64,000 nt of DNA from Takakia lepidozioides (lineage: Eukaryota; Plantae; Bryophyta), in NCBI GenBank assembly GCA_030704615.1, contig CM060733.1:53072001-53136000 (forward strand), in the 5' to 3' direction. Position 1 is the first letter of the stretch; each line of letters starts with the position of its first letter. The notes under the pieces were generated by a model. The model was not told the DNA's origin. It saw only the letters and a program-made list of their open reading frames with translations, and did not search any database. The translations under genes and the position numbers were made by a program. Shown one piece after another: positions 16,481 to 58,967 of this stretch.

Positions 16481-16499
16481 CTTGTAAGTATGTTCAAAC

Positions 16500-21799: not shown

Positions 21800-24700
21800 T
21801 TGGGTTGTGAGTTTTCATCACGGAGGTGCCACCAGCTGCTGAGGAGAGTGCCGGTACAAGCACCAGCGATACTAGTGGGTACACAAGACAAGGTGTGCGG
21901 TTTAGGCCACTTTCACCTTCAGTGTCTTCTGAGGAAGGTTCAGACTCGGAGTCAGGAGGATTCTCGCCAAGGGTGCAAGTCAATTCCGTGCCATTGTTGT
22001 GGGACACGATGGAGGAGATGTATGGAGCTACCAAGGGGCCACGAAGGTACTCTGGGGCGGTGGGCACCATTGAGTTGGATGATTTATCCAGAGTTTGATA
22101 GTTGGTTTAATTTGCAGCACATGCGCAATCCCACACTATTTACGCCTTTCATGGCATGGAAGGGGCGTTTCAGCACCTGAGAGGGGGCCACCTATGGATG
22201 ATTACCATGAGTTCAGGCGGGGCATGAGGTTGAGATCGAGAAGTGGAGGATGTACTAGCACCCGACTATGTCTCCATCACTAGGGGCACTAGAGCCACAG
22301 GGCATTGGCTACACCTGCCGCTGCACCGGCACTTCAGCAAGCAGCAGTGGGACTGGTGATACCATAGCTACGACGTCCACCCAAGCTACTGCTGCACCAG
22401 CCCGACCAGTGGCGGTGCCTGCCTTCAACCCCTGTTGTGGATTCTTCGAAGAGTTAAGAGGGAACTACCAGGGGTGAGGACAGAGAAGTTGCGGAGCTTG
22501 CAAAGATTCCAACGGAAGCCGACTGAGAGCTTGAGGGAGGCTTTCACTCGCATGAGGCGCTTGATAAATGTAACCCAAGGGGTTACGGAAGCTCAGGCAG
22601 TCCAATGCTTGTATGGGATATTGGACAAGACTGAGGAGAGGGGTGTGGGATGCAACTCTCCTACAAGCGGCCCAACCCACTTTAGCAAATGTGTTTTTGC
22701 TAGCAGAGGCGGATAGAGCTCACATGGTGGAGGAACGAGACGGTCATGGTGGGATTTGCTAAGGAGACACCACGGGGTAGTGGTGCTCCTAGCCAACCAC
22801 TACCTCAACGTGCTCAAGGCAACAAGGGTGCTCAGGTGAAGCCCAGGAAGGACAGAGAGAACCTCAGATGCAGGGTCTCTCCCTCATTTGCGGCCACAAC
22901 GGGGGATGTGGTGTGTTGGACATGTGGCGACCCCATGTCAAGAAGGATTTTGACCCAGAGGAAGACGGGGCTAGCATAATGCACAGCCTGCACATTGCAA
23001 TATGCATTGTGGCAAGCACGGGCATGGAGAGGCCCAGTGTTATGGTTTGCATCCTGGTTGCGCCCCGGCCAGTTCCAAGGGAACAATGGTGGCCGGGGGT
23101 GAGGTGGAGCAGCCCCGAGAGCACGAGGTGTCGGGCACGAGGTGCAGGCCAATGGCAAGCTCAACATGGCCAAGGACGCGGAGGTCAAGGTTTGACCGAC
23201 ATGGCCCCAGCTTCAGCAGCTAGAGCAGAGGCTCGTTGCCATGGCTACAGCTCAGGTGGTACCGCTCCCAGCGAGATGGTCACCCTCCTGTTCCTAAGGG
23301 AGAAGATATGGGAGGCATGGGATTCATGTGCGGAGCAGCCTACCACTAGTGCAGGTGGGTCTGCTGGCAAGCCCTGACTCCGAGGAGCAGCACAGTTCCT
23401 GAGCCCGAGGTGCAGAGGTGGAATTGACCCCATCGTGGGAGGCAAGCGTCAGGCTGAGGCTTCCTCAAGTCATTCACATTGGCGAGACAATGTCGACGCC
23501 ATCCATTAGGCCCGGACCGAGGCGGAGGTTCTATGCCATTGGGGAGAAGCTACAACTGCACACTGACACCTGCTACCAGGCTAGTACAGCCGGTGTGTTA
23601 TTGGGGGCAAGCCACCTCTGTGTCTCAAGCCCCACTGTTCTTGGCAACCATGATTGCGACGCCGGGGGTAGACCACTGCATTTCAACTAGCAGGCAACAC
23701 TCTGTGAGAGTGGGAGGTCACTCATCTTCTGCGGAGTTACTGGAAGGTGTAGTGGCAAGAGGGATCCTCGGATTTGAGGGTCAGACTCCACGGCTGCGCC
23801 ATGGCAGCTGCAAGCTGCCAGCTAGGCCAGCCTTTGAGCGCGCCATGTGACACCTGGAGTTGTCCTTGTTAGACAACCAGGGAGCATTTTCACTTTGAGT
23901 GGACCGGCAGGCAAGAAGTACCGGCCACTGCGGGTCCTTGTTGGACTCAGGAGCACAGCCACTGATGTTGGGCATAGGCTGCTTTTGCAGGTTTGGGCCT
24001 CATGGAGGCGGATATGAAGCCTTGTCCTTTCCAATACAGACATCTCTGGGAGGATCAGAGCAGGCTCGGGGCATGATACGGCGTGATTTGCCATTGGACT
24101 ACACCAGATCATCCTGTAGATGGCTCAGTGATGCGAGCCAGGCCATTGTGACAGACGCGGTCTCTTACGATGTCCTTGTTGGTGGGGCAATGTTATATCC
24201 TATGGGCTTCACCTTGGACTTTTGGGAGGAGTTAGCATCCTACAGGCCAGGATGGCAGTCAGGGGATGGTCGTCGTGCACAAGCTTTCCTGTGACATTCA
24301 TTTGGGTATTGCGGCTGCCAAGCGGGGCAAGATGCCAACACTAGCCGCCTTTACAACTGCAGTTAGTTGGCCTAGAGAGTTGCTAGAAGGCAATGCCCAT
24401 GCAGAGGATGTGCCACCTCCAGCAGAGCAAGATGACATGCATGGTACGGCGGAGTTGCCTGCCTGGTTGCTCACACTCCATTATGGGTACGAGCAAGGAT
24501 TTGCAGCAGGCTGCTGATGGACGGGTACAACAAGCCTGGCTAGAGACCTTCTTACCGTCAGGAGAAGAGGAGAGTGCGGTGATTGCACCAGGACCACCTC
24601 AGTTGTCGCCATTGGACACCACACCTCTTGTGTGGCAGTGCCCGGATGAAGACATAGGCCTTCTGGACTTGCTTTGGCGGGATCAGCACTGGATTGGCTG

Positions 24701-27700
24701 CAGTATTGCAGGCAGGTGTACGAGTTCGACGTTACCTGTATGTGGAGAGGGATGAGACTGCACGACGCGTCTCACTGCGCCATGTTGCTCAGTTGGTACA
24801 GCAGTAACCTGATTTGTCGCCAGTGTCTGCAGTTCGTGGATACCAAAAAGCCTTGCCAGCAGACATTTCGTTGCTGGGGGCGCATGATTTGGAGCAGGTT
24901 GGCTCCATTGATCTGGTAGTGGCAGGTTGGCCCTGCCAAGGGCATTCATCAGCCGGGCATGGCAATGGATTGCGAGACTCGAGGACGGGTCTGTTTTGGG
25001 AGATGGTGCGGATTTTACGCCACTTGCAGCTTCATCAAGCTGTATCTCCAGCATACATCTTGGAGAATGTGCCACTGATGAGTGATTCTTGGGCCAAGGT
25101 GATGGCCAGTGTGCATCAAGTCCGGTCGTGGCTTGGGTCAGCAGTGTTGCTGGATGCAGCTGCAGTGGGGTCATGGGCTCATCGTTCACGGCTATGGTGG
25201 ATTAACTTGATGCCACCCGCACTGCTCAAGCGTGCATTTGATGGGGTGTAGTGGCCAACACACCTCACAGTGGATAGCATTTTGGACACAGGGAGGCAGT
25301 CTCAACGTGTGAGACACGATGACCGTTTGCCTTTGCAGTGGTCAACAAAGAGGGTCAACCACGAGCAGCATTACCTACACTGCTCAGCTTCCCAGGATCC
25401 CATGCTTTTCGGGATGGTGGACCTGGCCTCTTGTGGGATAGCCAGTTGCAATAATTAGTGGAGCCCAATGCTGACGAGCGCGAGCGGGCGATGGGTTTTA
25501 CCACAGGTACCACGGCGGTGCCATCTCTTTCTGAGGCATCACGTCGTCAGGTGTTGGGGCAAGCAATGGATATCAATTGCTTGACCTGGATTATCAGCTT
25601 GGCTATGGCTGAGCAGCGCAGAGTACGAAGTACACTTCCCTTCATGGTCTCCCTGCCTACCGAGACGGTACAGGCAGCAAGTGGGGGCGAGCAGGTGAGG
25701 ACCACGAGGTGCAGGCCGCATCCATGGCACACGTGGGAGGTGCTCGAGGTTCAGAAGGAGTTGGCAGCCAAGGCGGCGGTGATGGATCAGGTTGGGGATT
25801 TTTTCTCGGATTGAGGAGGTCCTCAAGGATGGGATAATGGGGCAGGATGAGACATTGTCACTGACAGAGGAGGTAGTGGTCACTGCTCAAGAGGTTGCAG
25901 CATAGCAACCATGGGACGCGTCTTCTACGTCTAAGCCTGCTGGACTCAAGGTTGCAGTCACGGAGGACAACTGGGAGCTTGATGTTGGACCTATAGTCAC
26001 CGGAGGAGAGAGACGACATATACGGCGGTTCTTGAGGGCTTACAGTAATTGCTTTGCCTTCAGTTTGAAGGACGTAGGAGCACTGAAGGGTCAAGAGATT
26101 CGCATTGAATTGGCTACTGACACACCAATCTTTCGGAGACCCTATAGATACAGTGACATGGAGAGGTCCTTGATTCAGATGAGAACTCAGGACCTTTGGG
26201 AGGCTGATTTGGTGGAGCTATCTGGGGGAGAGTATGCTTCAGCCACAATGATGCCAGCCAAGAAGGATGTCTTTGGCAATTGGAGGGAGAGACGTATGTG
26301 CGGTGATTACCGGCCTGTAAATCGTCAGACCAAGTCCGATAGGTATGCCATGCCAACACCAGAAGAGATCTTTGATGCCATTGGGCATGCCAAGGTCTTT
26401 AGCACGTTGGATTTACGATCCGGATATCACCATTTGCCGATCAAGGAGGCGGATAAGCAAAAGACGGCATTCTGGGGGATCAATGAGCACGGGAAGGATT
26501 GCCTATACCAGTGGCGGTTCTTACCATGTGGGCTTAAGAACGCTCCGGCAAAGTTTCAGAGAGTCATGGACAGGATTCTAGCAGGGGTGGAGTTTGCTCG
26601 GTGCTACATAGATGACATCATCATTTTTAGTGCTACGGTGGAAGAGCATGAGAGACACCTTCAGGGGGTATTTGAGCGCTTGAGGGCGCACGGATTGAAG
26701 TTACATCCGGGAAAGTGCAAGTTTTTCCACAACCAGATTGAGTATCTGGGTCACATGATATATCCTGGAGGATTGGGGGTACAGCAGACTAAGGTAAAGT
26801 CCATTGCACAGGTTCCACGCCCCACGGATGTGAGCCGAGTTCGAGCTTTCATGGGGTTAGCAAACTATTATAGACGGTTTGTTAAGGGATTTAGTGCCAT
26901 TGCAAAGGCTCTAACCAAGCTGACCAAGGTGGACCAGGAGTGACAGTGGGAAGATGAGCAAGAACAAGCTTTTCAAGAGCTCAAGGCGAGGTTGACCTCG
27001 ACGCCCATCTTGAGACGACCTATCAGGGGGCGTCCTTTTCAGCTGCATACAGATTGGAGCATGTTGGGGCTTGGAGCGGTGCTCACACATGTGGATGAAG
27101 AGGGAAGAGAGTTCGTAGTAGCTTATGCTAGCCGTTCGAACAACGTTGCAGAGTCTAAGTATAGCTCATATGAGGGAGAATGCTTAGTTGCAGTGTGGGC
27201 CGTGGCACACTTCAGGTGCTATCTATACGACAATCTCTTCACCCTTGTCACGGATCACCAACCACTCAAGTGTTTGATGGACCTGCAACAAGGATGACTG
27301 TAGATCAAGTGTCTGAGGACCCTGAGGCCAGCAATGAGCAAGGTGGCGCCAAAGATATACATGAGGATTCAGTTGTGTTGGACTATCTCCGCACTGGAGA
27401 CACTGCAGCCACTGTGACTGCCAAGGAGAGGGATCGGATCCTACAACGAGCCAAGAGGTTCAAGTGGGAGGGGACACACCTTCTCCGAGTGTGGGAGGAT
27501 GGTCGAGTGAGGATTGTGCCTCACCCAACACAGCGGGCACGGTTAGTGCGGCATGCCCATGAGGAGTTGGGGCATTTTGGGATGCGACGCATACATAGTC
27601 TACTGCAGGGGTAGTATTGGTGGCGTGGTATGCACACAGAGGTGCAACAATTTGTGGCTAGGTGCATGATATGTGACAGGGTGCGTGCTTCATTCAACGC

Positions 27701-28086
27701 CTCTACTCCACAATTGCACCCTCTTCCGATCATGGGATTGGGCTACAGGTGGAGTCTTGACTTCGCAGGGCCGTTGCCACTGACCATGCGCCACAACAAG
27801 TACGTGTTGGTGATGGTGGAGCACTTCTCCAAGTGGATTGAATTGGTTCCATTGCCTGATAAGGCTAGTGAGGGAGCTGCGTATGCATTCTTGGATTGTG
27901 TGCTTAGCCGATTCGGTGCTCCAGCTGAGGTACTCACGGACCAAGGGAGAGAGTTCTTGGGGGAGTTTCAGGCTTTGTGTGACAAGGCCTTGATAGACCA
28001 CCGCACCACTTCTTGGGATCATCCTGAGGCCGATGGCTTGGCAGAGAGAGTTGTTCAGACAGTAAAGAGGGGTTTGCGCAAGTATG
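21800..28086 (+). mobile_element. Ty3/Gypsy retrotransposon with a C5 DNA methyltransferase (family D), copy 1: gag-PR-DNMT-RT-RH-IN, 3'-truncated
   Basis: Gag (LRSLQRFQRKPTESLREAFTRMRRL; knuckle CMHCGKHGHGEAQC), protease LLDSGAQ (23899-24294), DNMT motifs (24655-25620), RT with YIDD (26032-26943), RNase H FQLHTDWS..YSSYEGECL, integrase HEELGHFG..CMICD, WSLDFAGP, TDQGREF, GLAER. The 5' boundary is uncertain. Confidence 0.92.
24655..25620 (+). pseudogene. DNMT3-like C5 cytosine methyltransferase domain within retrotransposon pol (disabled)
   Basis: Motif I LDL/FGGISTG (1-nt insertion at ~24672), motif II YLYVERD, catalytic motif IV DLVVAGWPCQG (PCQ at 24931-24939), motif VI YILENV, motif VIII LLDAAAVGSWAHRSRLWWINL, motifs IX-X ERERAMGF..SRRQVLGQAM. 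Canonical (non-permuted) order, no introns. Confidence 0.92.
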
Positions 28087-29335
28087 ATGTGCTCAAATTG
28101 GCTGATGTGTACATCAAGATCCCTTTTCCCTTCATATATTGGCAAATGTGGTTTTGCCCGTGTTGGAGGTAACACCATCTGTGGCCCTAAACCCTGCCCA
28201 CTGACAGGTGCTGGTCCTTGAGGACCTGCTATTGTAGTGGTGGATCTCCCACCAAGTGCGGGTCCCTGAGCACTCCCTGCTACTAGCCCCACTATAATCT
28301 CAATATCCCTAGCTACAGTTGCACTACTTCCCACACTCCCTGTCCCCCCAGAGCCAGATCCAAACTGCCCGCCTGATCCCCCTGAGCCGACAGTTTCGTT
28401 GGCCTATGATCCAAGTGCTCCACTTGATCTAGGTCCAACAGGTTGGGATGTCCTGGTTGTAGTCTCAACCTCAATTGTCGGGTATACTTCTCCATACCCT
28501 TCATCTTCCAAATTCTTCTCTCTGTTTCCATCTTCCAAATTCTTCTCTTGGATTTCTTCTTCTTCACTCATGTAACTCAATTGCAATGGTGTTGGAGAGT
28601 CTGAACTCTCCGTTGGCTCTGCCACATCTTCCTCTCCCTCTTTATTGTGTGATTCAGAAACTGGAGTTCCTGCCTTTGGTGTCCAATGCCAACCCTTATC
28701 AAAGATTTCTGTCAAATCTTTTATCTAGGGATGTACCTCAGATCTCTCCCCTCGTGGCTGATCTTCTTCTTGTACCAAATCCCTTAATGTTTCTTGTAAA
28801 GAATAAGAAGGAGTGGCATCCAACTCTGGTTCCTCCAGTATGGGTAATGTACTCTCTGATCTTAATGGTGTGAGAGGTCCAGATGATTCCCCTATGTCTA
28901 TTCCTCTCTCCCAAAGATATGGATAATAATTTTTCAAATAACTTTCTCTTTTTGCTGAATATCTGTGAAGTCTAGCTTCTCTTTCATCACTCATGTCCCA
29001 TGTCTTTCATATTTTCAATGAGGCAATAACCAAAACTCTCTCATGTAGTATCTCTCGTATATGCCTGGATTTCTTTCAAGCTTCAATGCACCCTTGGCTA
29101 TACTAGAAGTCTCCGTTACCATATAACCATATGGCAAGCACGTAATTTGGAAAGCTGTTCTTGGTGTAAGTTTGATCCACAGGATATCCTTGGGAATCCA
29201 ATTCTTTACCAGTACCAATTCTTCATGCATATGAGTGTAAGCATTCACTTTCCGTTCCTCCCAGCCTTCAAACTCCACTCGTTTAATGGATAGCAACGCT
29301 ATCACATAAACCAGTGTTGGTAACCAACTTGCTCT

Positions 29336-30275
29336 TGTTAGAGGGCTGTCTGGGACTTAGACACTTTTATGAGCTTTGTGGGGTACCCTTAAGTTTTTGC
29401 GCAGACTTACGGATGGTAGACTTAGACCAATAGAGGCCTTAGGGGTGACAGGCACAGGCTTTAGGGGTGGTAGTCAGGTTTTCACAGCTTGACACAGCTT
29501 CGCACAGCCAGTCACAGCTCGACACAGCCCGACACAGCTTCGCACAGCCAGTCACAGCTCGACACAGCCCGACACAGTTCTACACAGCCAATCACAGCTC
29601 GGCACAGTCACAGCCCGATACAGCTTGGCGCAGCCGTCACATCGTACGTAGGGAACAATTATCATTGGCGGGGAACGACTATGTGGGAACGACATCTGTA
29701 GAGGGAACGTGCTTACTTCTTGAGATGACAGTTAGTTAGTTAGGCGGTTAGAACAGCTTGCGGGAAGATTAGGCAGAGTAGCAACTTGGAGAGGACACTT
29801 CGGGCATCACGACTTGGTCATCGGGAAGAGGAGGACGATATGGAGCTGGAGGAGAGAATATGGTGAAGAAGGAGAGACGATCTGTTGACGTTGTTACATG
29901 CAAGCTGTAGAGATATGTAGTAGGGTAGACTAGGGACACCATGGCTTCAGCCTGATACATGATAAATCTCAATCTAATACTTATTCAATATAAACATACT
30001 GTGTAGAGAGACTTGAGTGAAGCTGTGAAATGAATGGATGAGTGAATGGAACCTGATAGATACTGAAGCAATCTGATGCTTCAGTATACACAGTAAGGTA
30101 ATTGCTAATATGAAGGCAAGAAGAAATAGAGATAGGAAGCACAACCATGATTCACTAGCTGTAGGTCATGACTGATTGTTCAGAGCGGGCTGAGTGCTTA
30201 GAGATATCCAACTCTTCTATTTTGGAGTTCCTACCTCAGATAGCGAAGGGACGGGTGAGTAAAAGCCGCTCGACA
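29336..30275 (+). mobile_element. Solo LTR (940 bp, TG...CA), same family as the LTR at 30551-31567, opposite orientation
   Basis: TGTTAGAGGG...GCTCGACA, with flanks GCTCT and GTTCT (4/5 TSD). Removing it and one TSD restores the reading frame ..QVVCRGR-ASWLPTLVYVIALLSIKR.. of the host element. Confidence 0.88.
29480..29635 (+). repeat. Degenerate ~10-bp minisatellite (GACACAGCYY-like) inside the LTR; related arrays at 31200-31415 and 11525-11650 (opposite strand)
   Basis: Directly visible CACAGC / GCTGTG periodicity. Confidence 0.85.
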
Positions 30276-32941: not shown

Positions 32942-33499
32942 TCACAATCGACGCCGGCACAGGGGGCATGTGCCGTTCACTTGAACCCAGCTGTCAATGC
33001 ATGCACTGTGGAAGGAGTGCAGGCACACACTGAGCATGCATATAGTTTCTCCCGGTTGTGCCGACTGAAGGCAAATAATACATGAGTCCATTGCCTTAGT
33101 TTCCGCGGTCACAATAACCTGTTCATCAGAACTGACAAAAGAGTCCATGCAAACACCACTCCAATGGAAGTCCTCTTCCTCAACAACCTCCAATTCTTCA
33201 AAACCATGTACAGGATACTCCCCAGCTTCCTCCTCGTCCACACTCTCGTCGGATGACTCTGACTCCAAATCCAATGCACACCACCAAGGCAATCTGGATT
33301 CTAAGAAGGCAATGCAGTCGGCCATCCCTTCTTCATATTCCGTGATGTTTACCAGCTGAGGGGAGGCAGGCCTGCTCCCCACGTCTTCTTCCACCGCAGG
33401 AATTCCAACTGCTTCAAAATTGGCATCAGGTGAATGTCCACTTTCACTACCATGTTCCTCTGCACCTCTCCCCTCATCATTGTCATACCGCTCAACCAC
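32942..33499 (-). CDS. RING-H2 zinc-finger protein with acidic N-terminus (intronless; start codon uncertain)
   Basis: C-terminal CIICLQ..CLHSFHSACIDSW..GTCPLCR is a C3H2C3 RING-H2 domain. Confidence 0.7.
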   Translation of the reverse strand: MVERYDNDEGRGAEEHGSESGHSPDANFEAVGIPAVEEDVGSRPASPQLVNITEYEEGMADCIAFLESRLPWWCALDLESESSDESVDEEEAGEYPVHGFEELEVVEEEDFHWSGVCMDSFVSSDEQVIVTAETKAMDSCIICLQSAQPGETICMLSVCLHSFHSACIDSWVQVNGTCPLCRRRL

Positions 33500-35731: not shown

Positions 35732-37974
35732 CATCTGGAGACCTCTTGAGAAGGTTCCTGATGGAGATTGGTTATGTCCACACTGCTTGGGATAGTGGTA
35801 GTGGATATGACCAGCAGCTAACAAGACATGGACGACCAAGCTCATCGGAGTCAATACACGAGATCCCAGGCTCAAGTTCACATGTTGCAAGATGACGACT
35901 AACGGGCAACTCTTGCACCCGGCCTCTTGATCTATCGAGTTTGAGTGTAGTAGGGATAGTGGTGGAGGACTTAGGGAGGCTACGGTCACTATCGCATCTT
36001 GTGGCTACCTAGACTTAGAGGGACCTAAACACCAACTAGGGGGGCGATTGTGGTGGATTAGTGACTGCCATAGTGGGCAGCATAGTGGTTGGACTAGTGG
36101 CACTACAAGAAAAAGTAGGGGTTTTCGACGCCGCAGCGTCGTAAAACAGCTCTTTTTAGGGGGGGGGGGGGGGGGGGGGGGGAGAACCAAATTTGCGACG
36201 TTCAGGCGTCGCGAGCCCGTCGCCAAAAAAACGTCGCAAAATTTGCGACCAATGGGGGTCGCAAATATGCGAAACCGTGATTTGCGACGCCGACGCGATT
36301 TGCGACGCCCGGGCGTCGAAAAAAAAAAAACCTACTCTGCAATGCAGAATTAGCACCGTCCGGGGGTCGCAAAGTGCGACGCCCCGGACGTCACAATTTA
36401 AGGGGGTACATTTGAATTTAAAACAACGGCCCTGGAAGAGTATGAACAGTTGTAAGGTGGGAAAATTTGAATTTGAATTTTGAATTTCAAAAATTTGTTG
36501 ACCATTGACTCCGGTTCTGTCTAATGGCAATATGTTCATTGTTCTACATATATCATGCAACGCATACTTGAACCTAAGACCTCCACGTTATAACATTTCT
36601 AAGACACTACAAATTAACCAACACACCTACGCTACATCTATGTATCACAAAAACAATCTAAATATATATATATATATACATATAAAGATTTCCTTCAAGT
36701 TCTTTCAAGTTCCTTCTAAGGGGTCTCTCTTGTGACGCCGGGAGTTGCAACCTCCACAGCCTTAATGCCCAGCCCCAGCCCCAGCCCCAGCCCCAGCATC
36801 GTCGCCGTTGTTGTACCCCCCACCGCCAGGCGTCCTAAGTCCTTGTGTGGACCTAAGCTGACCACAACACCATTGCGACCCCCTGTGGCGATGTCGTTAC
36901 AACCCCCTGACGTCGCAACGTTGGGCGTCCCAGCGCGGGGCGCCCCAGCGACGCTTTTGTGAAGTTGAGGGCCGCAAAGCCAAAAAAAATAAATCCCGAT
37001 GATATTGATACAGGGGAGACGTCAGACAAAGAGTTGGACTCCGACTTTGCCTGTGAGTAAGTTCAACCTGTGAAAAAAACTCCCACTGTGGTGATGCTGT
37101 TGCGACGCCCTGGCGTCATAGAGGTGCTGGGGCGCCCTTAGTGACGCCGAGGCGTCACAACGTTATTTTTATTTTTATTTTTATTTTTCGGATTTCCGAC
37201 GCCGGGGCGTCGCAAGAAAAAAAATCCATCGCAGCGAGGGCCCTCTTTCCCCCTTCATGCCACCTTACGACGGCTGGGCATCGTAATGGTGTCGCAGCGG
37301 GGGATTGCGACGCCGGGCGTCGCAAAAAGCGGCGTGGGCTCGGCGTCGCGGGCTCAGCGCCGCGCGGGGCGGCTGGCGTCACAAAACCCCCCCATTTGCT
37401 GTAGTGAGGTATACTAGTGTGTGGTGTGCACATGTGTTGTGTGGTTTTGGACAACGATGTAGTTGTGTAGCGATATGTATGCACACGACAGCTGTCAAGT
37501 TATTTCACCACTAGTGTGAAACTAGCTAGGAAATAGCTAGCTTTTACATATTGACATTTGGGATTGGCCCAAGTGTCAATCCAGGGATCAAGACATCTAT
37601 TTAGGCCCTGGAGTGATTATCTTCACGGCAAACGCGAGAGGCTCATCTTTCTTGAGTTGAGCCTCACCGCGCCTAGCCATGGCGCCGTAGTATGGATTCC
37701 CCATAGCATGGGGTATACTTGGCTCGACTTAATATATGTGTGATGGTTTTCATGTGCAAGTGTGTGAGTTTGAGAGAGCTTGTGTGCTTGTATTCTTCTC
37801 TTTATCATTGTGATGGACTAGTGACTCCCATAGTGGGCAGCCAGTGATTGACTAGTGGCAACCTAGTAGTTGGACTAGTGGTTGGACTAGTGGTATACTA
37901 GTGTGTGGTATGCACATGTATTGTGTGGTTTTGGACAACGATGTAGTTGTGTAGCGATATGTATGCGCACGACA
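35732..37974 (+). mobile_element. 3' remnant of a family D element: PHD end, 3' UTR, PPT and A-B-A terminus, interrupted by a CACTA element
   Basis: Encodes PLEKVPDGDWLCPHCLG*. PPT-like AGGGGGGCGAT precedes A1 36049-37490 (containing the CACTA insert), B 37493-37807 and A2 37809-37974. Confidence 0.85.
36101..37406. mobile_element. Non-autonomous CACTA element (1306 bp)
   Basis: Begins CACTACAAG and ends CTGTAGTG. 3-bp flanks are TGG and AGG. Dense GCGACGCC / GGCGTCGC subterminal repeats at both ends. The empty site GGACTAGTGGTATACTAG is visible in the sister A repeat at ~37885. Confidence 0.88.
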
Positions 37975-48719: not shown

Positions 48720-50308
48720 TCATGTCTTGAATTTCTTGGACGTTTGCTCAAAAATTTCCTCCTTAGCTTGAACATAAGCTGTTAATTGGTCAGTTAAGGA
48801 CTCAAGTGGAAGCTTGAGAACAACCTGCCATACCAAAGCCGTCTTGTCCTTGTGAATCTTAGAACCATCTGAGAATTTATGCACATCTTTGAACCCATCG
48901 TCATAATTGGAAGGGTCTGCGACAAGCAGAAGTAGTGGTTGCCACACTTGAGGTGATAGTAGACCGGGGCAGACACCCTCCAAGTAACGGTATGCCTCAG
49001 CTCTGTTATTGGAGTCCACTTCCATGGCCCCCACAAGAATTTTAAGCCCACTTCGCTAGATTTTATGGTGGTTCCCAGGATCCATTTGGAAATACAGCAC
49101 AGGGCTGCTGAGTGCATCCACCGCAGCAAAATTTGATGAAGAGGGCAGGCAATACTTCTTACAATTTGCTTCCACCAATTCAGCTGCTCCCTTTACACTG
49201 TGAAACGTATGTATCGTTGACTTTGGCAGCACAAGTTCAAACGATGGCCTAACATGCGGCATTTAAAGCATCCACCTGATGCTAGCATAAAGTGAGCGAG
49301 CTGCTCACACCAGTAACCTCTCTTCGTTGCTTGCTCCATGTGCCCAAGTGATTTCATGTTATCCCCATAGTCAAACTCAAGAGAGCTGTAACTTGCGGTG
49401 AAACAAATCACAGACACATTCTACTGTACTTCCGTAGACACTTCTTCGCTGGGCTGCTTGAATTCTCAGGGAGGTCCTCAGAATCAGGAATTGTCCAGTG
49501 GAAGATCTTATCACTACCCAGAGGAAATCCACTAGTTCCAACATGAAGTAGGTGGCTTTGGACTGAGGACGTGGTCATTGCATAAACCAAGTTCATCTTC
49601 CAATCTTCAACATTTTGCCCCATAACTTGCCCATAAAGCACTGTGCGTGCAATTTCACCTGCGAGAGCAAACCACTCCCTAATTTTGGACACCTCTAAGT
49701 TGCTTAACCGTGTTACGGCTTCAGCACATTTCTCCAGCTCCTCTAGCTCAAAGAGGGGCATGTATAACACAAGGGTGTCAGGATGCTTCCTTTGAAATTT
49801 AAAATGTTGCTTTTGTACACTGCCAAAAACCAACTGCAATATACGTGGGCACATCCCCACAAAGATGTTTGGACTACAACCGTCCACAACATATGCTGCC
49901 CTCTTGACTTCCTTTTGCAGCACTTCCAAGGCATCTAGGCTCCGGTCTGTTACGTGATCTACTGGAGGACCATCTTTGGGCAGCTCAAGAATGTAAATGA
50001 ACATTCCTTCGAATTGGGGATCTTGCTGAGTCCAACCTTTCTAGAACAACCATTTTTCCGTCAATTCTGCCACCATCAGTGACTTACCAATTCCAGGGGT
50101 GCCCGTGAACAGTTGCATGGAAAGGCCTACTCTCAAAATAAGCAAGGCGAGCCTCTTTCAACTCAACATAAGCACTCCGAACAAAAACTTGGTTGGTGAA
50201 AGTCGACTCATCACCGAACCAGTACACACCGTCCTGCAAAGCGATCGCAAATCCAGAGCCCGTCCGTGCTCGATCTATGTTGTCTTTGACAGACATGAAA
50301 GACTCCAC
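48720..50308 (-). pseudogene. Crinkler/RHS-like P-loop NTPase gene fragment (frameshifted, 5' end cut by a retrotransposon)
   Basis: VFVRSAY upstream, Walker A FTGTPGIGKS (50080-50109, in a shifted frame), Walker B-like AAYVVDG, and LYMPLFELEELEKC and WFALAGEIARTV motifs typical of CRN/RHS NTPases. Confidence 0.7.
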
Positions 50309-53300
50309 TATCGTGCGCATACATATCGCTACACAACTACATCGCTGTCCAAACCACACCACGCATATATGCACAATAAAGTGGTCTGCCACAATGATAA
50401 GAAAGAACTAAACTCAAATAACAAGAGAAACACAAAACACAACACCATCACTCTTTAAATAATAGTCGAGTCAGGGGCACCCCAAGCTATGGGGACTCCA
50501 CCCCACAACAACCTATCCTCCCTTCATAAGCACACTCAGGTTCTGAACGGTGAAGGAGCTCGGTCGTGCAGGCTCAACTCGAGAGAGATGAGCCGCACGA
50601 CTGACGCTCTCGTGAAGATAAGACGGTTCAGGTGTCAAACTAAACTTGACATCTGACTTAACACTTGAACTAAATCCAAGTATTAAATACAAATAACTAG
50701 CTTTATTCTAGTTAGTTTCACACTGTGTTTATTTAACTTGACAGCTGTCGTGCGCATACATATCGCTACACAACTACATCGATGTCCAAACCACACCACG
50801 CATATATGCACAATAAAGTAGTCTGCCACAATCGCCCCTCTAGCTGGTGGATAGGTCCCTCTAACTCCAGATAGCTACAAGATGTAATAGCCACAGCCGT
50901 ACTAAGTCCTCTATCACTGTGTCTCTTGTACTCAAACTCTATAGACCAGGAGGCCGGGTACAAGAGTAGCCCCATCGTTAGTCGTCGTCTTGCAATCTGT
51001 GAACTTGAGCCAGGATCTCGTGTGTTCAAGGTCTCATAGTAGCTTGGCCTTGCGTTTCTTGTTAGCCTTCCATGGTTGTATCCACTCCCACTATCCAATG
51101 CAATGTGGACATAACCAATCCCCATCCGGAACCATCTCAAGAGGTGGAGTCAAGCATCCCATATGCCAACCTCTAGAGCATCGATCACACACCAGCATGG
51201 TGGCTGCCCCTCTAGCAGACCCACACAACATGCACCTCAAACTTGCAGATACCACTGCCAGGTTTGGGTCAATCCTGCCATCGACATTCGAAAGATGACA
51301 TGGCGCACAATTACGCACATGGTCCTTCCAAGTTATGCCATCCCGACCCTCCAAGATCAAGACGCCTGAGGGCAAGACCTCTCGAACCCTCAAAATAACA
51401 CGTCCTGCAGTCACATCCAAGGTCGTAGGAGCAGTCTGCTGCAGATAGACATAGTCACCAGGGTTGAATCTCCGAACCCCAGAACGATAACCCCCACCAC
51501 GTATGGTAGCATACCTCAACGTATCACGATGTTGTGCAATGGCAAGTTTCTCGGAAGCCATGGGCATGACTTTCTTGAACAACTCTGCACGCTGCTCATA
51601 TGCACGTGCCCACACGTCCGGATCGTCAAGGTTAAGAACTGTAGCAACTTCTCTGCGAATGGATGTAGGCAAATCCGGCTCTCGGCCAAAGAGAAGAAAG
51701 TATGGTGAGAATGAGGCAAGTGATGCTTGCTTGCTGAACCTGTAGCCCACGGCTAACCAGGGTAACTGAAGGTCCCAATCTCCTAGGTGTCCCTTCTGCA
51801 AGCCATACTTGCGCAAACCCTTCTTTACTGTCTGAACAACCCTCTCTGCCAAGCCATCGGCCTCAGGATGATCCCGAGAAGTGGTACGGTGGTCTACCAA
51901 GGCCTTGTCACACAAAGCCTGAAACTCCCCCAAGAACTCTCTCCCTTGGTCCGTGAGTACCTCAGCTGGAGCCTTGAATCGGCTAAGCACACAATCCAAT
52001 AATGCATACGCAGCTCCCTCACTAGCCTTATCCGGCAATGGAACCAACTCGATCCACTTGGAGAAGTGCTCCACCATCACCAACACGTACTTGTTGTGGC
52101 GCATGGTCAGTGGCAACGGCCCTGCGAAGTCAAGACTCCACCTGTAGCCCAATCCCATGATCGGAAGAGGGTGCAATTGTGGAGTAGAGGCGTTGAATGA
52201 AGCACGCACCCTGTCACATACCATGCATCTAGCCACAAATTGTTGCACCTCTGTGTGCATACCACGCCACCAATACTGCCCATGCAGTAGACTATGAGTG
52301 CGTCGCACCCCAAAATGCCCCAACTCCTCATGGGCATGCCGCACTAACCATGCCCGTTGTGTTGGGTGAGGCACAATCCTCACTCGACCATCCTCCCACA
52401 CTCGGAGCAGGTGTGTCCCCTCCCACTTGAACCTCTTGGCTCGTTGTAGGATCCGATCTCTCTCCTTGGCAGTCACAGTGGCTGTCGTGTCTCCAGTGCG
52501 GAGATAGTCCAACACAGCTGAATCCTCATGTATATCTTTGGCGCCACCTTGCTCATTGCTGGCCTCAGGGTCCTCAGACACTTGATCTACAGTCATCCAT
52601 GTTGCAGGTCCAACCTAGCCTTCCGCTGCCAAGATACACAGAAATGCACATGCATGTCATCCGGGCACCATCTCCTCATCCGTCTCACCATGCCACCGAG
52701 CTCCAATGTCATCATGTTGGCTCGTGCATGGATTGCAACTCAACCCATCTGCATTGCGATTGACCAAACCTGGTCGATGCACAACCTGAAAGTCATACTC
52801 TTGAAGTATGAATGCCCACCGTGCAAGCTTCCCCGTAAGCTTGTCTGACTCTATCAACCACTTGAGTGGCTGGTGATCCGTGACAAGGGTGAAGAGATTG
52901 CCATATAGATAGCACTTGAAGTGTGCCACAGCCCACACTGCAGCTAAGCATTCTCCCTCATATGAGCTATACTTAGCCTCTACAGCGTTGTTTGAGCGAC
53001 TAGCATAAGCCACTACGAACTCTCTTCCCTCATCATCCACTTGTGTGAGCACCGCTCCAAGCCCCAGCATGCTCCAATCTGTATGCAGCTCAAAAGGACG
53101 CCCCCTAATAGGTCGTCTCAAGATGGGCACCGAGGTCAACCTCGCCTTGAGCTCTTGGAAAGCTCGTTCTTGCTCATCTTCCCACTGCCACTCCTGATCC
53201 ACCTTGGTTAGCTTGGTTAGAGCCTTTGCAATGGCACTAAATCCCTTGACAAACCGTCTATAATAGTTTGCTAACCCCATGAAAGCTCGAACTCGGCTCA

Positions 53301-55078
53301 CATCCATGGGGCGTGGAATGTGTGCAATGGACTCTACCTTAGTCTGTTGTACCCCCAATGCTCCAGGATATATCATGTGACCCAGATACTCAATGTGGTT
53401 GTGGAAAAACTTGCACTTTCTTGGATGTAACTTCAATCCGTGCGCCCTCAAACGCTCAAATACCACCTGAAGGTGTCTCTCATGCTCCTCCACCGTAGCA
53501 CTAAAGATGATGATGTCATTTATGTAGCACCGAGCAAACTCCACCCTTGCTAGAATCCTGTCCATGACTCTTTGAAACTCTGCAGGAGCATTTTAAAGCC
53601 CAAATGGTAAGAACCGCCACTGGTATAGGCAATCCTTCCCGTGCTCATTGATCCCCCAGAATGCCATCTTCTGCTTATCTGCCTCCTTGATCGGCAACTG
53701 GTGATATCTGGATCGTAAATCCAAAGTGCTAAAGACCTTGGCATGCCCAATGGCATCAAAGATCTCCTCTGATGTCGGCATAACATACCTATCGGACTTG
53801 GTCTGACGATTTACAGGCCGGTAATCACCGCACATACGTCTCTCCGTCCAATTGCCATAGACATCCTTCTTGGCTGGCATCAATGTGGCTGAAGCATACT
53901 CTCCCCCAGATAGCTCCACCAAACCAGCCTCCCAAAGGTCCTGAGTTCTCATCTGAATCAAGGACCTCTCCATGTCACTGTATCTATAGGGTCTCCGAAA
54001 GATTGGCGTGTCAGTAGCCAATTCAATGTGAATCTCTTGACCCTTCAGTGCTCCTAAGTCCTTCAAACTGAAGGCAAAGCAGTTACTGTAAGCCCTCAAG
54101 AACCGTCGTATACATCGTCTCTCTCATCCGGTGACTATAGGTCCAACATCAGGCTCCCAGTTGTTCTCCGTGACTGCAACCTTGAGTCCAGAAGGCTTAG
54201 AGGTAGAAGACGCGTCTCGTGGTTGCTATGCTGCAACCTCTTGAGCAGTGACCACTGCCTCCTCTATCAGTGACAATGTCTCACCCTGCCCCATCATCCC
54301 ATCCTTGATGACCTCCTCAACCCGAGAAAAATCCCCAACCTGATCCATCACCGCCGCCTTGGCTGCCAACTCATTCTGAACCTCGAGCACCTCCCACGTG
54401 TGCCATGGATGTGGCCTGCACCTCGTGGTCCTCACCTGCTCGCCCCCACTCGCTGCCTGTACCGTCTCGGTAGGCAGGGAGACCATGAAGGGAAGTTACC
54501 TCCGTACTCTGCGCTGCTCAGCCATAGCCAAGCTGATAATCCAGGTCAAGCAATTGAGATCCATTGCTTGCCCCAACACCTGACGACATGATGCCTCAGA
54601 AAGAGATGGCACCGCCGTGGTACCAGTGGTAAAACCCATCGCCCGCTCGCGCTCGTCAGCACTGGGCTCCACTAATTGTTGCAACTGACTATCCCACAAG
54701 AGGCCAGGTCCACCATCCCGAAAAGCATGGGATCCTAGGAAGCTGAGCAGTGTAGGTAATGTTGCTCGTGGTTGACCCACCCTGTTGACCACTGCCAAAG
54801 GCGAACGGTCATCGTGTCTCACACGTTGAGACTGCATCCCTGTGTCCAAAATGCTATCCATTATGAGGTGTGCTAGCCGCTGCACCCCCATCAAATGCAC
54901 GCTTGAGCAATGCGGGTGGCATCAAGTTAGTCCACCATAGCCGTGGACGATGAGCGCGTGACCCCATTGCAGCTGCATCCAGCAACACTGCTGACCCAAG
55001 CCACGACCGGACTTGATGCACACTGGCCATCACCCTGGCCCGAGAATCACCCATCAGTGGCACATTTTCCAAGATGTA
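50309..55078 (-). mobile_element. Family D copy 2: partial DNMT (motifs VI-X)-RT-RH-IN-PHD-PPT-A-B-A terminus, 5'-truncated
   Basis: YILENV..AHRPRLWWTNL (54854-55078), ERERAMGF..RQVLGQAM (54496-54900), RT 53593-54099 and 52657-53565, integrase plus PHD 51091-52596, PPT 50831-50843, A1 50746-50830, B 50395-50743, A2 50309-50393. Highly similar to copy 1. Confidence 0.93.
51091..52596 (-). CDS. Ty3/Gypsy integrase with a C-terminal PHD finger (open 501-aa frame)
   Basis: HHCC (HEELGH..CMVC), DDE core, and CMLC..LVCDRC..WHMGCLTPPLEMVPDGDWLCPHC (C4HC3). Confidence 0.92.
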   Translation of the reverse strand: MTVDQVSEDPEASNEQGGAKDIHEDSAVLDYLRTGDTTATVTAKERDRILQRAKRFKWEGTHLLRVWEDGRVRIVPHPTQRAWLVRHAHEELGHFGVRRTHSLLHGQYWWRGMHTEVQQFVARCMVCDRVRASFNASTPQLHPLPIMGLGYRWSLDFAGPLPLTMRHNKYVLVMVEHFSKWIELVPLPDKASEGAAYALLDCVLSRFKAPAEVLTDQGREFLGEFQALCDKALVDHRTTSRDHPEADGLAERVVQTVKKGLRKYGLQKGHLGDWDLQLPWLAVGYRFSKQASLASFSPYFLLFGREPDLPTSIRREVATVLNLDDPDVWARAYEQRAELFKKVMPMASEKLAIAQHRDTLRYATIRGGGYRSGVRRFNPGDYVYLQQTAPTTLDVTAGRVILRVREVLPSGVLILEGRDGITWKDHVRNCAPCHLSNVDGRIDPNLAVVSASLRCMLCGSARGAATMLVCDRCSRGWHMGCLTPPLEMVPDGDWLCPHCIG

Positions 55079-58000
55079 TAGGGATTAAAGAAGTTCAAGT
55101 ACTGTAGTTTCTGTTTTTGGCCTAGGAAGCACCACTGCAGCTAGGTGCATCGTGTGGGCCACGCTAGGTACCTTCGATGATTTGCGGATTCTAGAGTTGC
55201 TAGGAAGGAATAGAGATGTGTCGGGGGATATTTTTGGAAGGAGCAGCGAACCCTGCGAAAAGCTTGATTTAGCTCACATCAGAAGACGTGCTTTAGCTCA
55301 CATCAAGAATGGAGCATATCTATGAACTCCAAGTCCATGAGATTATTAGGCGACTTAAATTGGTACTTGAAGACCTAAATAGTTTTCACTATCCTTTGAG
55401 GCATACTTACCCGACCATAGCATGGCTTGTGTCATCTGACGTGCCTGGAAACCTGGATTCAGATGACAGGCAAAGGAGCCAAAAATTGTAGGCTCTCAGA
55501 GGCCTCTCATATGTCTCGTGGACAGTACATCATTTACGACAGTCACTACCGACAGAACCCACATGTTCTGTACTGGCACAAAGAGATCGGGCCCACCAAA
55601 CATGCAGTTCCCGACACTTAAAAGTAATCGTGTATAAGTATTCCAAAACGCGTAGTCTCCAGTCTCCACCTTTCATTCAGGGGAAGATTCGATTTTTGGT
55701 TTTGTTGCCTCTAGAAACATGGAAGAAAACATTTGGTCGTTGCAAGGACTCGGGCCAGTGGGCACAGTGAATAGGGTATGTGTGCAAGTGTCAAAGCCAT
55801 ATTTAGTTATTCGTGAAGACGTTTGATTGTTTTCAAAAGCAGCAACCTTCTGAATTCAATGAGGGTACTATGCAACTGTCGGTACCGATTGCGGACTGCC
55901 GACCGGTCAACGATGACATCGCGGCTGTCATCACACATGGTCCCGAGTTCGGATCCATCAAGCTGTGGAAAGCTGTCAGAGTTGTATAATTGATGTTATC
56001 CCTGAAAAATAAGGTTGTATGAAGAGTATTGAATCGACGCAGGATGCATGTAACGTGCATAGCACTGTACAAATCCTTGTTTCCTGTTATCTACTTCCCC
56101 TGTAAGTCTCTCTCATGATCTTTCTCAAGGTCTTTGGAATTTTCCCCTTCTCCCTGCTCTTCTAGGCCCAGTTACCATTTCTGAGGATTAGATCATCTCT
56201 CTGCTCTCTCGATGGGAGCCTCAACGGTTAGAGCGTTTTTTCCTCACCAATCGAAATAGGACAATTAAACTCATCTCTATCTCTTCTCCCGTTATCAGTA
56301 CTACTGAGAATAGTCCCTCTGACTATTCTTGAGTGACTCTCACTTTCTCTTGTCCATGGCATGGTTCGCGTCCTTGGGGCTATGGCTACAACTGGTTACC
56401 TATAGGTCGAACTCAAGCACGTGGCACTTGATCAACGATTGCCTTCTAAGAAAGCATGTTTTGTTGCTCTGGAGAGACGATTTGATCCCAAATTATGACG
56501 GAACTTCTGTAGACAAGTTTGATCGAGACAAGTTTGCTTGTGTTTTAACCTAAATTGTGGTCGTAGCCGATCATTCTTGAAACTGTGTTAACTTTTGATC
56601 AGCCACCACCACAATTTGAAGTTATAGCACAAGCGTACATTGGGTGAAATGTTTCACAGTCATTCAGGATTCGATAGTGCAAATGGGACAACGAGTCCAA
56701 GAATGTTGACAGATCATATCAAAGACTATCGCCGTTGCTGTTGCCAAATCACACTTGGTCACCCAACAATAGAAATCGGCAAAAGTGACTGACGAAGTAG
56801 GGTGCAACATGTACCCACAAGGTTGGAAATTTTGTACATACCGCTTTTCCTGAGGAAATATGCCATCTCGAGATCCTAATTTCAATTTGCTTTGGAACGA
56901 TTGGCTGGACGCCATCAAAAGTTGGCATACGATCTCCTTGGATCGGTCTTCCCAAATTCTTTACAGAATGGGTGGATGTGCAAAGGTGAGCTCATGCCAC
57001 ACCTTTATAAAATCTAGAGAGCTTCCAGTATCGTCAATAAGCCTTGCAAAGTAACTTGTACAGATATATTGGTCAAGAATCAACTGAAAAACGTCAAACT
57101 TCTCGAAAGTAAGCTGAACTAGACGAAGGGGGTACAGCAGGAGATTGTGCTACAGTTTCTTATCCAAGCACGGGTATTAGGAAAGTCTCTATCAGCTGAT
57201 GATATGAATCAAAGCACCTTCTCTAGAATTCAAGTTTTTGGCTCCATCTACGAGCCTGGATCATCTGGCACGGAGTCCCATTCATGAACGTTCACATTTG
57301 AGAACCAAGTAGAAGGGTAGTGCTATGTACAGAATGGTCGGAAAAGAGCAGCTCTCAGTCATCACTCGTTTGATGATCATTATCAGATAATAGACAACCT
57401 TACCACTGGTCAGTTGAATGAAAGTGTTAGCTACCAACCACCTCAAACAAAACCAATTTACACAAAGTCTGAACAACATTCTATGGAAGAAATAATTTGA
57501 ATTGATTTCTATGCATGCCAGTAAAGTTCTTGCTCTTATAGATCCCCTAAGGCATTCTAGCACTAGTTGAAGCCGACCTTATGAGACTGATGAAGGGAAA
57601 ATTGGCTATCACTTCAGAATTCTGCTTAGGAATAGGCGATGGAGGCTCTTCCGACTTACTGTTGGAAAACATGAACATCTAAAGCTACTATAGACGCTAG
57701 CAGCAACAAAAGAACACTTGACAAGGCGGTGAGAAGAAGACAACGTGCTGAAGAACCCTGTACTCAACAGTGAAAAAGATTAATTCAACAAGTATTTTAA
57801 TATTTCAGTGGGTATTTCAACAAGCATTCAATATTTTAATAACTAGTAAATTCGAAGATCAGTTTTGTAATATCAAACATAAAATTTAATTCATACATCA
57901 ATAAAGTTCTGCCAGGGCTTCTGTCCCCGACTTTATAAATAAATAAATAAATAAATAAATAAGTAAATAAAGTTAAGGGCCTCCATCCCCTTTCTGTAAA

Positions 58001-58290
58001 ATAAAAATAAAAATAAATTGTCCTCTAATACATAACATGATTGACATATAATTCAAAAACAAAGTAAACCAAACTTAAGAGTTTTAGGGTGGAGCCATTA
58101 CGCGACTAGATGCTTGTTCTTAGCGATTTGTTTTTAGACCGCTTTGTTTGAAAAGCAAAGGTTTATATTATCCATGACTTTAGAATTATTGTTGGAAATA
58201 TGACTTGAACTACCAATGCATGAGAAGTTTGTTTTGTGTATTCAGGATTGGTGCAAGTGAGGGAAGACTCTCCGATGTTTAGATTTGTGG

Positions 58291-58639
58291 TGTCAAGTTA
58301 AATAAACATAGTGTGAAACTAACTAGAATAAAACTAGTTATTTGTATTTAACACTTGGATTTAGTTCAAGTGTTAAGTCAGGTGTTAAGTTTAGTTTGAC
58401 ACCTGAACCGTCTTATCTTCACGAGAGCGTCAGTCGTGCGACTCATCTCTCTCGAGTTGAGCTGCACGACCGAGCTCCTTCACCGTTCAGAACCTGAGTG
58501 TGCTTATGAAGGGAGGATAGGTTGTTGTGGGGTGGAGTCCCCATAGCTTGGGGTGCCCCTGGCTCGACTATTATTTTAAAGAGTGATGGTGTTGTGTTTT
58601 GTGTTTCTCTTCTTATTTGAGTTTAGTTCTTTCTTATCA
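58291..58639 (+). mobile_element. Stand-alone type-B LTR followed by a putative self-priming PBS
   Basis: TGTCAAG...CTTATCA, nearly identical to the reverse complement of 50395-50743. The downstream CTCAAGAGAGAT (58640-58651) pairs 11/12 with ATCTCTCTCGAG (58445-58456). Confidence 0.82.
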
Positions 58640-58967
58640 CTCAAGAGAGATCATCTCTTACCTGTGAGTGCAAGGTAGGAGTTGAGGGTTAGCACTTGCA
58701 TGATTAGTGTAAGTAGTGCTTAGTTTGAGAAGCATATCATTGAATGTGACCACAAGATTCAGCGTGCCCTGAAACGCCTGGAGGATGACGATGCCGGAGC
58801 CGCCACTGCTATCGCAGTCTTTGAAGTTACCAAGTCACCAAAGGCTTTAGAGTACACAAGAAAATCAAGGAGAAGATGAAAGCTGCGGAGTACATGGATT
58901 TGGATGGGAAAGCAGACGACAAAATTCGGATAATGGAGGAAGTGGAAGTAAAAGTTGGCAGCAGCCG

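Follow-up and report, generated by a model that had tools for sequence, protein, structure and literature searches.

Decayed Ty3/Gypsy copies with a DNMT3-like methyltransferase domain in Takakia lepidozioides, and the possible life cycle of their family

What does a retrotransposon do with a DNA methyltransferase (DNMT) of its own, and how is such an enzyme expressed and carried? The question was raised by a 64,000-nt stretch of Takakia lepidozioides DNA (GenBank assembly GCA_030704615.1, contig CM060733.1, positions 53,072,001 to 53,136,000 of the forward strand; "the window" below). A preliminary description, made from the letters alone, had noticed there a Ty3/Gypsy element with intronless C5-methyltransferase motifs between its aspartic protease and its reverse transcriptase (RT), and all the motifs it named were found at that place. 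The element is of the KnitGypsy-Dnmt3 kind reported in 2018, here extended to bryophytes and chlorophytes. From the decayed copies and their relatives we lean towards a cycle in which the DNMT3-like domain is translated at the level of Gag up to a leaky stop codon, is packaged in the particle and methylates the element's own cDNA, which would then integrate by way of a circle. Broken copies, the conserved stop, a PHD finger and split terminal repeats had been overlooked in the preliminary description.

A methyltransferase domain shared across a retrotransposon family

Copy 1 occupies 22009-28086 on the + strand and keeps the order gag, protease, C5-methyltransferase, RT, RNase H, integrase. 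Its features are as follows.

22009..23100, +: gag, frameshifted, with a capsid-like part and a CCHC knuckle at 23008; 32-41% identity in tblastn with Marchantia gag
23899..24258, +: aspartic protease, LLDSG at 23938-23952; 51% to the Marchantia protease region
24655..25622, +: broken DNMT3-like C5-methyltransferase domain with motifs I-X in canonical order; 68-78% to its Marchantia counterpart
24673-24693, 24925-24939 and 25060-25071, +: DNMT motifs I, IV (GWPCQ) and VI (LENV)
25177-25200, 25476-25499 and 25554-25571, +: DNMT motifs VIII (AHRSRLWW), IX and X (LGQAMD)
25903..25911, +: conserved stop context TAG CAA CCA closing the Gag-protease-DNMT frame (TAG 25903-25905)
25966..27288, +: RT and RNase H (RVT_1 E 9e-33, RT_RNaseH_2 E 2e-31), YIDD at 26605-26616
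27456..28086, +: integrase (H2C2 and DDE core; rve E 2.6e-14), truncated at 28086, where identity to copy 2 stops

The profiles that the preliminary description had proposed (PF00145, RVT_1 and rve) all gave matches, as did RT_RNaseH, PF00145 with E 1.7e-14 and 54 bits at a cut-off of 22, and the DNMT domain reads without need of any intron. The claim of a full set of motifs held for their presence and failed for the integrity of the domain, which is broken by a frameshift at motif I (~24672), stops at 24805, 25249 and 25452, and a frameshift near 25335. Further damage comprises a one-base offset in the DNMT-RT linker and a shattered gag, which matched Retrotrans_gag weakly, under the Pfam cut-off. 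A Pfam scan of the protease open reading frame (ORF) gave no match; the proteins of relatives do match Asp_protease_2.

Copy 2 runs from 55079 downward on the - strand and is 94-97% identical to copy 1. It begins within motif VI, is also broken, and continues through RT, RNase H, integrase and a PHD finger into terminal repeats. Its coding part comprises three features.

54508..55079, -: broken 3' portion of the DNMT domain with motifs VI-X, before RT
54220..54228, -: conserved stop context TAG CAA CCA (TAG 54228-54226), in frame with DNMT and RT alike
51094..54165, -: RT, RNase H, integrase (rve and H2C2 matches) and C-terminal PHD finger (51234-51100, E 2.8e-10)

Two copies alone would not prove that the domain belongs to the family. 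It is a family trait and not a one-off insertion, as had been claimed, because homologues from Marchantia, Sphagnum and other hosts exist outside the window. A protein search for longer homologues gave 39 matches, the named ones including 18 from Marchantia polymorpha, two from Calypogeia and two from Sphagnum. Additional protein searches brought relatives from Haematococcus and Closterium, and among 20 later matches identified by name were one from Klebsormidium nitens (GAQ93235.1), one from Mesostigma and three from Closterium. In a representative library, 42 clusters reached E 1e-30 or better. In metagenomes 73 loci were found, and 65 of them (L-numbered here) were analysed further; the protease lay upstream of DNMT in 43 of the 65, and DNMT stood after RNase H or directly before integrase in 11 distant loci (hand count). 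In annotated Marchantia proteins gag, protease and DNMT share a single frame, which rules out the domain as a nested insertion.

A second arrangement, with DNMT between RNase H and integrase, was seen in L047, L050, L052-L054, L057-L062 and the Haematococcus proteins P0093 and P0094, and this arrangement corresponds to one RT clade (100/100). The domain thus appears to have moved within the polyprotein; the arrangement was not found in the parts of the literature examined.

Beyond the 55079 end of copy 2, contigs from public runs carry on into further DNMT sequence. Four such runs were compared with 49000-60500; in three of them the flanks had a summed contig depth far below that of copy 2 (120-940 versus 0.5-1.2 million in run X1), and depth over the DNMT part of copy 2 equalled that over RT. 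The fourth run gave a single 5-kb contig, 50826-55079, extending upstream. Summed contig depth is not a copy number; it suggests an abundant family with DNMT as a standard part.

The RT tree, with one outgroup, grouped the window, Marchantia and Sphagnum-like sequences and L039-L042 (100/99), and the DNMT trees recovered the same window-plus-bryophyte group (94/97 and 98/96). All 38 retrotransposon DNMT rows of a further tree, K. nitens included, formed one clade (99/100) against nine bacterial or phage outgroups. That tree left out 11 rows of an earlier one, had long branches flagged and held no host DNMT3, DRM or K. nitens RT rows. A single capture of DNMT would be the likely reading of this topology. 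Viral contigs (30 loci, 28-46% identity) served as prokaryotic-type outgroups only, and prokaryote genome contigs searched with the K. nitens protein gave no matches.

Among solved structures the domain is closest to DNMT3A/B by sequence and by fold, ahead of DRM and bacterial enzymes. This agrees with the earlier judgement that it is DNMT3-like and not of the circularly permuted DRM type, since its motif order is unpermuted and a 36-row profile searched against PDB gave 5e-21 for DNMT3A, 1e-9 for DRM and 3e-7 for HaeIII. With the open relative P0057 as query, DNMT3B/3A came best (E 2e-9), followed by DRM (2e-6) and HaeIII (6e-4). An AlphaFold model of the domain of L001, an open natural relative, reached a pLDDT of 94.7, and DNMT3 chains made up 32 of the 32 structure matches listed (TM ~0.7, 21% identity).

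Conservation was counted over 156 homologous domains of full length: the catalytic Cys is present in 153 of them, the Glu of motif VI in all, and the two Arg of motif VIII in 151 and 152. The catalytic residues are retained from Haematococcus to mosses. The Pro of motif IV is replaced by Glu in 60/156 and by Ser in 6/156 domains, all distant members (proteins P0079-P0243), with the Cys unchanged. The ratio of nonsynonymous to synonymous substitution rates (dN/dS), a check that had been proposed for the domain, was 0.10-0.20 between lineages in the eight of ten pairs with finite dS, the other two being saturated, and is not neutral. The single unsaturated pair gave 0.14 for DNMT and 0.11 for protease. 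The DNMT domain is under purifying selection across the family, even with dS above 1.3, mostly near saturation, in seven of the eight finite pairs, which weakens the estimate. The enzyme is probably catalytically competent.

A conserved stop codon between methyltransferase and reverse transcriptase

The preliminary description had placed the domain between protease and RT in copy 1 and directly before RT in copy 2. The order stands; continuity does not, as a conserved TAG separates DNMT from RT in either copy. In a linker survey of 67 sequences, 33 spanned the DNMT-RT linker, and all 33 carry a stop in the RT frame. It is followed by CAR-YY in 31/33, as against 6/337 premature stops inside domains, taken as background; the motif is absent after the stop in L026 and L039. 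Exact CAR-YYA follows in six (both window copies, L001, L040, L041 and L042), and these rows come from four lineages with unalignable linkers. The stop is conserved across the family, and Marchantia and Calypogeia gene models terminate at its position, 73-77 residues past the DNMT domain.

UAG-CAR-YYA is the type I readthrough motif, which functions on UAA too (PMC3542737). Readthrough is the best reading of the conserved stop and is held with high confidence: most ribosomes would stop at TAG-CAR-YY(A) and a few would read on into RT and integrase, so that DNMT would be made at the stoichiometry of Gag, far above RT.

Split terminal repeats and priming signals

In the window, copy 2 and a sister family share one 3' layout: a polypurine tract (PPT), repeat B1, repeat A2 and repeat B2, with the palindrome GACA-GC-TGTC between B1 and A2 (36050-37974 in the sister family).

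50746..50845, -: copy 2, PPT-like run, then repeat B1 (50832-50746)
50740..50749, -: copy 2, palindromic B/A junction GACA-GC-TGTC, putative integrase attachment site
50395..50743, -: copy 2, repeat A2, 349 nt, TG...CA
50305..50394, -: copy 2, repeat B2 (to 50309), then GTGG (50308-50305), likely target-site duplication
58287..58651, +: GTGG, repeat A1 (58291-58639, 97% to A2), then a 12-nt stretch like a primer binding site (PBS), complementary to 58445-58456
35742..37974, +: sister-family 3' end with PHD end, 3' untranslated region, PPT, B1 (split by an insertion), junction, A and B2

The B/A junction recurs at 37484 in the window and in L005, L024, L037, L041, L042 and L056. L024 is a complete relative, reading AAGG, A1, coding region, PPT, B1, junction, A2, B2, AAGG. 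The 5' A unit was seen in 15 loci (13 insertions); it starts with TGTCAT (TCTCAT in one), has unrelated flanks and is not accompanied by B. Repeat B ends at ACGACA or ATGACA. The 3' end is B-A-B in L037, L056 and twice in the window, and a single B in L015, L020 and L029. Target duplications of 4 bp were found in L024, L010 and the window, and with one mismatch in L026. The layout is therefore not two full long terminal repeats (LTRs) around a coding region, as A alone stands at the 5' end and B-A-B or B at the 3' end. In the loci with DNMT between RNase H and integrase, two one-mismatch matches to the palindrome in nine loci were not convincing.

The window's lone A at 58291 and the B2 of copy 2 probably mark opposite ends of a single rearranged insertion, A1 being the displaced and inverted 5' end, because GTGG stands before A and after B2 and because the first bases after A1 (CTCAA) are those of complete relatives. 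The 350-nt unit had also been considered as an unrelated solo LTR; this was rejected, as the unit stands after the palindrome and before the family leader, as in complete relatives. The stretch 55080-58639 appears inverted. Copy 2 was apparently inserted in coding sequence, its flanks (49408-50304 on the - strand and 57990-58290 on the + strand) being in frame across GTGG; they hold a Walker-A-like GTPGIGKS, seen by eye near 50100, and gave no Pfam match. An empty site of copy 2 was not represented by a contig joint among the 15 displayed of 151. The 5' leader of copy 1 matched neither repeat A nor the leaders of relatives. Repeat B1 of the sister family holds an insertion (36101-37406) with CACTA...TAGTG ends, which we take to be a CACTA element.

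No TGG-type primer site was found behind A1, and the window holds no tRNA genes. The 12 bases behind A pair best, at 10-12 of 12 positions, with a segment 154-167 nt into A in 12 of 14 A1 units, and 0-16 of 300 shuffles paired equally well (2 for the window unit). The paired segment lies downstream of a TATA-like run in Sphagnum-like units, and the window and Sphagnum-like versions of the pairing differ at six positions, on both sides. This pairing fits self-priming, a mode described in general terms elsewhere (PMC2864245). Minus-strand DNA would probably be primed by the 5' end of the RNA pairing behind A and plus-strand DNA at the PPT before B, giving a product with LTRs of the form B+A. Two points weaken this reading: 2 of the 14 A units failed the pairing, and the self-priming segment has a second, inverted match nearby, on its upstream side within A. 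At 1840-1870 in L024 and at 58430-58465 in the window, the likely RNA 5' end lies inside a short inverted repeat of A, possibly an alternative fold able to regulate priming.

The PPT before B and the PBS-like stretch behind A therefore frame an LTR of the form B+A, and the integrated ends lie inside it. The protease-RT-RNase H-integrase order, the TG...CA ends, the short target duplication and the PPT-like run before B1 are Ty3/Gypsy traits; the element works like a Gypsy that is circularly permuted at its ends. We give a little better than an even chance to the reading that the DNA closes into a circle, which the DDE integrase would open at the internal GACA-NN-TGTC palindrome: a 2-LTR circle opened there would give A-coding-B-A-B, and a 1-LTR circle A-coding-B.

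Alternatives, implications and known systems

The DNMT would likely be packaged in the particle; whether its main substrate is the cDNA there, one of the two targets (with insertion sites) supposed in the preliminary description, is evenly balanced. Methylation there would give new copies a host-like mark in advance or hide them from surveillance, and the PHD finger would likely steer integration through chromatin. Several observations weigh against this outline. Both window copies are dead, and the element's CpG observed/expected ratio (0.53-0.55) is no different from that of the neighbouring host gene (0.51), so that nothing in it points to special self-methylation. In yeast the K. nitens domain left DNA unmethylated, a result its authors called inconclusive (PMC5890265). 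As to the stop, 25 of the 31 CAR-YY rows belong to one Sphagnum-like family, some of them one locus assembled twice; 22 of 33 linkers are in frame and the other 11 off by an indel; and DNMT and RT are fused with no stop in P0043, P0079, P0080, P0081, P0113 and the Closterium proteins P0137 and P0284. Supply of DNMT at the level of Gag is therefore not essential.

The stop might also be a true end, with Pol made from its own RNA or by re-initiation. The Sphagnum-like rows read CAA CCC ATG, an incomplete motif with an ATG two codons past the stop that could serve separate initiation, and TAA occurs in 9/33 rows, eight of them Sphagnum-like at this position and the ninth the off-frame L026. Yet no Met precedes RT homology in the window copies, L001, L041 or L042 (past the stop of copy 1, that homology has run for 64 residues before the first in-frame Met, residue 85), and CAR-YYA is retained across unalignable linkers; a separate Pol is distinctly unlikely. 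The split repeats could arise without a circle if the internal B/A junction templated repair of both cDNA ends, as proposed for Ngaro/VIPER, so that the integrase received a linear A...B molecule. The layout A1 ... B1-A2-B2 is that of VIPER, Ngaro and PAT-like elements (PMC6681497), the 2-nt spacer and the TG...CA ends are compatible with normal 3' processing of linear DNA, and single-B ends, as far as the circle is concerned, could instead come from recombination between B1 and B2. End repair is nevertheless somewhat improbable: the PPT adjoins B1 and the PBS-like stretch adjoins A1, which marks B+A as an ordinary LTR and would end the linear product elsewhere, and single-B 3' ends do exist (the three loci above).

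The enzyme could act after integration or in trans, entering the nucleus and methylating genomic copies or insertion sites, with self-restraint or a reshaping of host chromatin as the outcome. Expression at the level of Gag supplies far more enzyme than one cDNA requires, self-restraint is among the options raised in PMC5890265, and the DNMT3s of host plants form a class apart, marked by DUF3444 (PMC6453930). Against this, the fused forms and those with DNMT between RNase H and integrase keep DNMT with Pol, which fits action on cDNA, and the K. nitens methylome is plant-like despite such elements (PMC5890265); we regard action after integration or in trans as unlikely. That the domain is a nested insertion, captured passenger or dead weight with no role in transposition is highly improbable. 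The broken window copies, a dN/dS of 0.56 among decayed sister copies and the motif IV replacements by Glu would suit it, but RT among the same decayed copies gave 0.53, the catalytic residues are retained as described, and no termini or target duplication surround the domain, which the Marchantia proteins hold in one frame with gag and protease. The findings that the preliminary description had named as fatal to its reading, namely a lack of PF00145, occurrence in two copies only with neutral dN/dS, and nested insertion, were not made.

In its boldest form, which we consider less likely than not, the synthesis of packaged methyltransferase and circle integration runs as follows: an ancient single capture of DNMT3 would have founded a green-lineage-wide DNMT-PHD Gypsy clade, whose bryophyte branch would combine readthrough, DNMT at capsid stoichiometry, methylation of cDNA in the particle and integration of an LTR circle through a site within the LTR. 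If true, a retroelement with a DDE integrase and a circle as its normal substrate lives in Marchantia polymorpha, where its genes carry no annotation beyond 'hypothetical'. The 2018 paper left open what advantage a DNMT brings to the retrotransposon that encodes it, a question that can now be tested in this species, for which genetics and methylomes exist. The conserved stop predicts enzyme dosage, and if circle integration is what permutes the ends, a retroviral-type integrase would be following an unusual route. The family is an unannotated source of possible de novo methylation in bryophyte epigenomics and can inflate DNMT gene counts; tools that require two matching LTRs would likely miss such elements.

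In the literature examined (subscription journals, Repbase and REXdb lying outside its coverage) no report was found of the family in bryophytes, of its readthrough or of its circle-like ends. Nothing on the family was seen in the parts examined of PMC9477723, PMC11244446 and bioRxiv 10.64898/2026.09.17.752431, nor of PMC9940879, which describes a PHD-bearing Chlamydomonas Gypsy without mention of DNMT. Such elements are mentioned in 'streptophytes' by PMC12344493 (citing PMC5890265) and bioRxiv 10.64898/2026.05.21.726589, and bryophyte sequences may be among the rows of the supplementary trees of both. A 2019 opinion paper has methylase-encoding transposons absent from land plants such as tracheophytes (PMC6338049). 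Within the same coverage, the stop with CAR-YY, the self-priming and polypurine signals framing an LTR B+A, and integrated ends inside the LTR at a palindrome were not found in print. DNMT-carrying retrotransposons in dinoflagellates and charophyte algae had been mentioned in the preliminary description, a precedent borne out by KnitGypsy-Dnmt3 (PMC5890265).

Its expectation that a land-plant family would extend the known range was upheld by the bryophyte relatives and by a host gene of the window. This spliced NUB1-like gene (713-6231, -) is closest to moss proteins and fell with mosses in a 22-row tree (93/97), sharing with Sphagnum a fork that the tree does not resolve and lying apart from the Ceratodon/Physcomitrium clade. 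On the evidence of this one gene the host is likely an early-branching moss, and a liverwort host, considered at first, was rejected on the same tree. ESM Atlas gave no usable match for a host-gene frame. A second, unrelated Gypsy family (11512-18989, -, and 34368-35731, +) has no DNMT, is partly tandem-duplicated and is strongly depleted of CpG (observed/expected ratio 0.16); its + copy adjoins the 3' end of the DNMT-PHD sister family at 35741. The window further holds a RING-H2 ORF (32945-33535, -, E 1e-11), a weak GIY-YIG-like ORF under the cut-off (58851-59423, +, E 0.006), and arrays of a degenerate 10-bp unit that form a long inverted repeat (29332-31571 and 11514-11613).

Self-priming of the Tf1/sushi type, which involves an 11-nt stretch, resembles the probable self-priming of the present family in an LTR-derived stretch behind the 5' repeat that pairs with the likely RNA 5' end, and in the lack of a tRNA-type TGG site; the present family differs in that its integrated ends do not match the primed ends. 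The A-coding-B-A-B layout is shared with SymbioDIRS-Dnmt3, whose DNMT3-type domain methylates CG de novo in yeast (PMC5890265), and with the split-direct-repeat elements Ngaro/VIPER (PMC6681497). Those elements use a tyrosine recombinase, whereas the present family has a DDE integrase, TG...CA ends and 4-bp target duplications; its ORFs gave no tyrosine recombinase match when scanned and matched rve and H2C2 instead. As in tobamovirus-type UAG-CAR-YYA readthrough (PMC3542737), a stop is followed by CAR-YYA and the downstream frame has no start of its own in most lineages. Leaky gag-pol stops are rare among LTR elements (PMC3441728), and the present stop differs from them in standing after protease and an accessory enzyme, not after gag. 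EpiLTRs and DAM-LTRs likewise join a methyltransferase to a chromatin reader in a retrotransposon, but the DNMTs of EpiLTRs are sister to DNMT4 and their reader is a chromodomain (bioRxiv 10.64898/2026.05.21.726589). The host plant DNMT3-DUF3444 proteins (PMC6453930) share the DNMT3-type fold in non-flowering plants; no DUF3444 match was found in the element proteins scanned.

The closest known system is KnitGypsy-Dnmt3 of Klebsormidium nitens (de Mendoza et al. 2018; PMC5890265). It shares the Gypsy domain set, an intronless and unpermuted DNMT3-like domain in the polyprotein, DIRS-like repeats in the order A-coding-B-A-B, and purifying selection (Ka/Ks < 0.2). The K. nitens protein GAQ93235.1, possibly one of the published copies, has the same knuckle-protease-DNMT order; it groups in one clade with the present family, and its identity to the Marchantia domain is 36%. 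The parts of that paper examined mention no PHD finger, self-priming signal, internal palindromic attachment site or single-B ends. According to its review response, KnitGypsy-Dnmt3 has DNMT in one ORF with RT and RNase H, where the present family has a conserved stop between them, and the present family differs again in having land plants as hosts.

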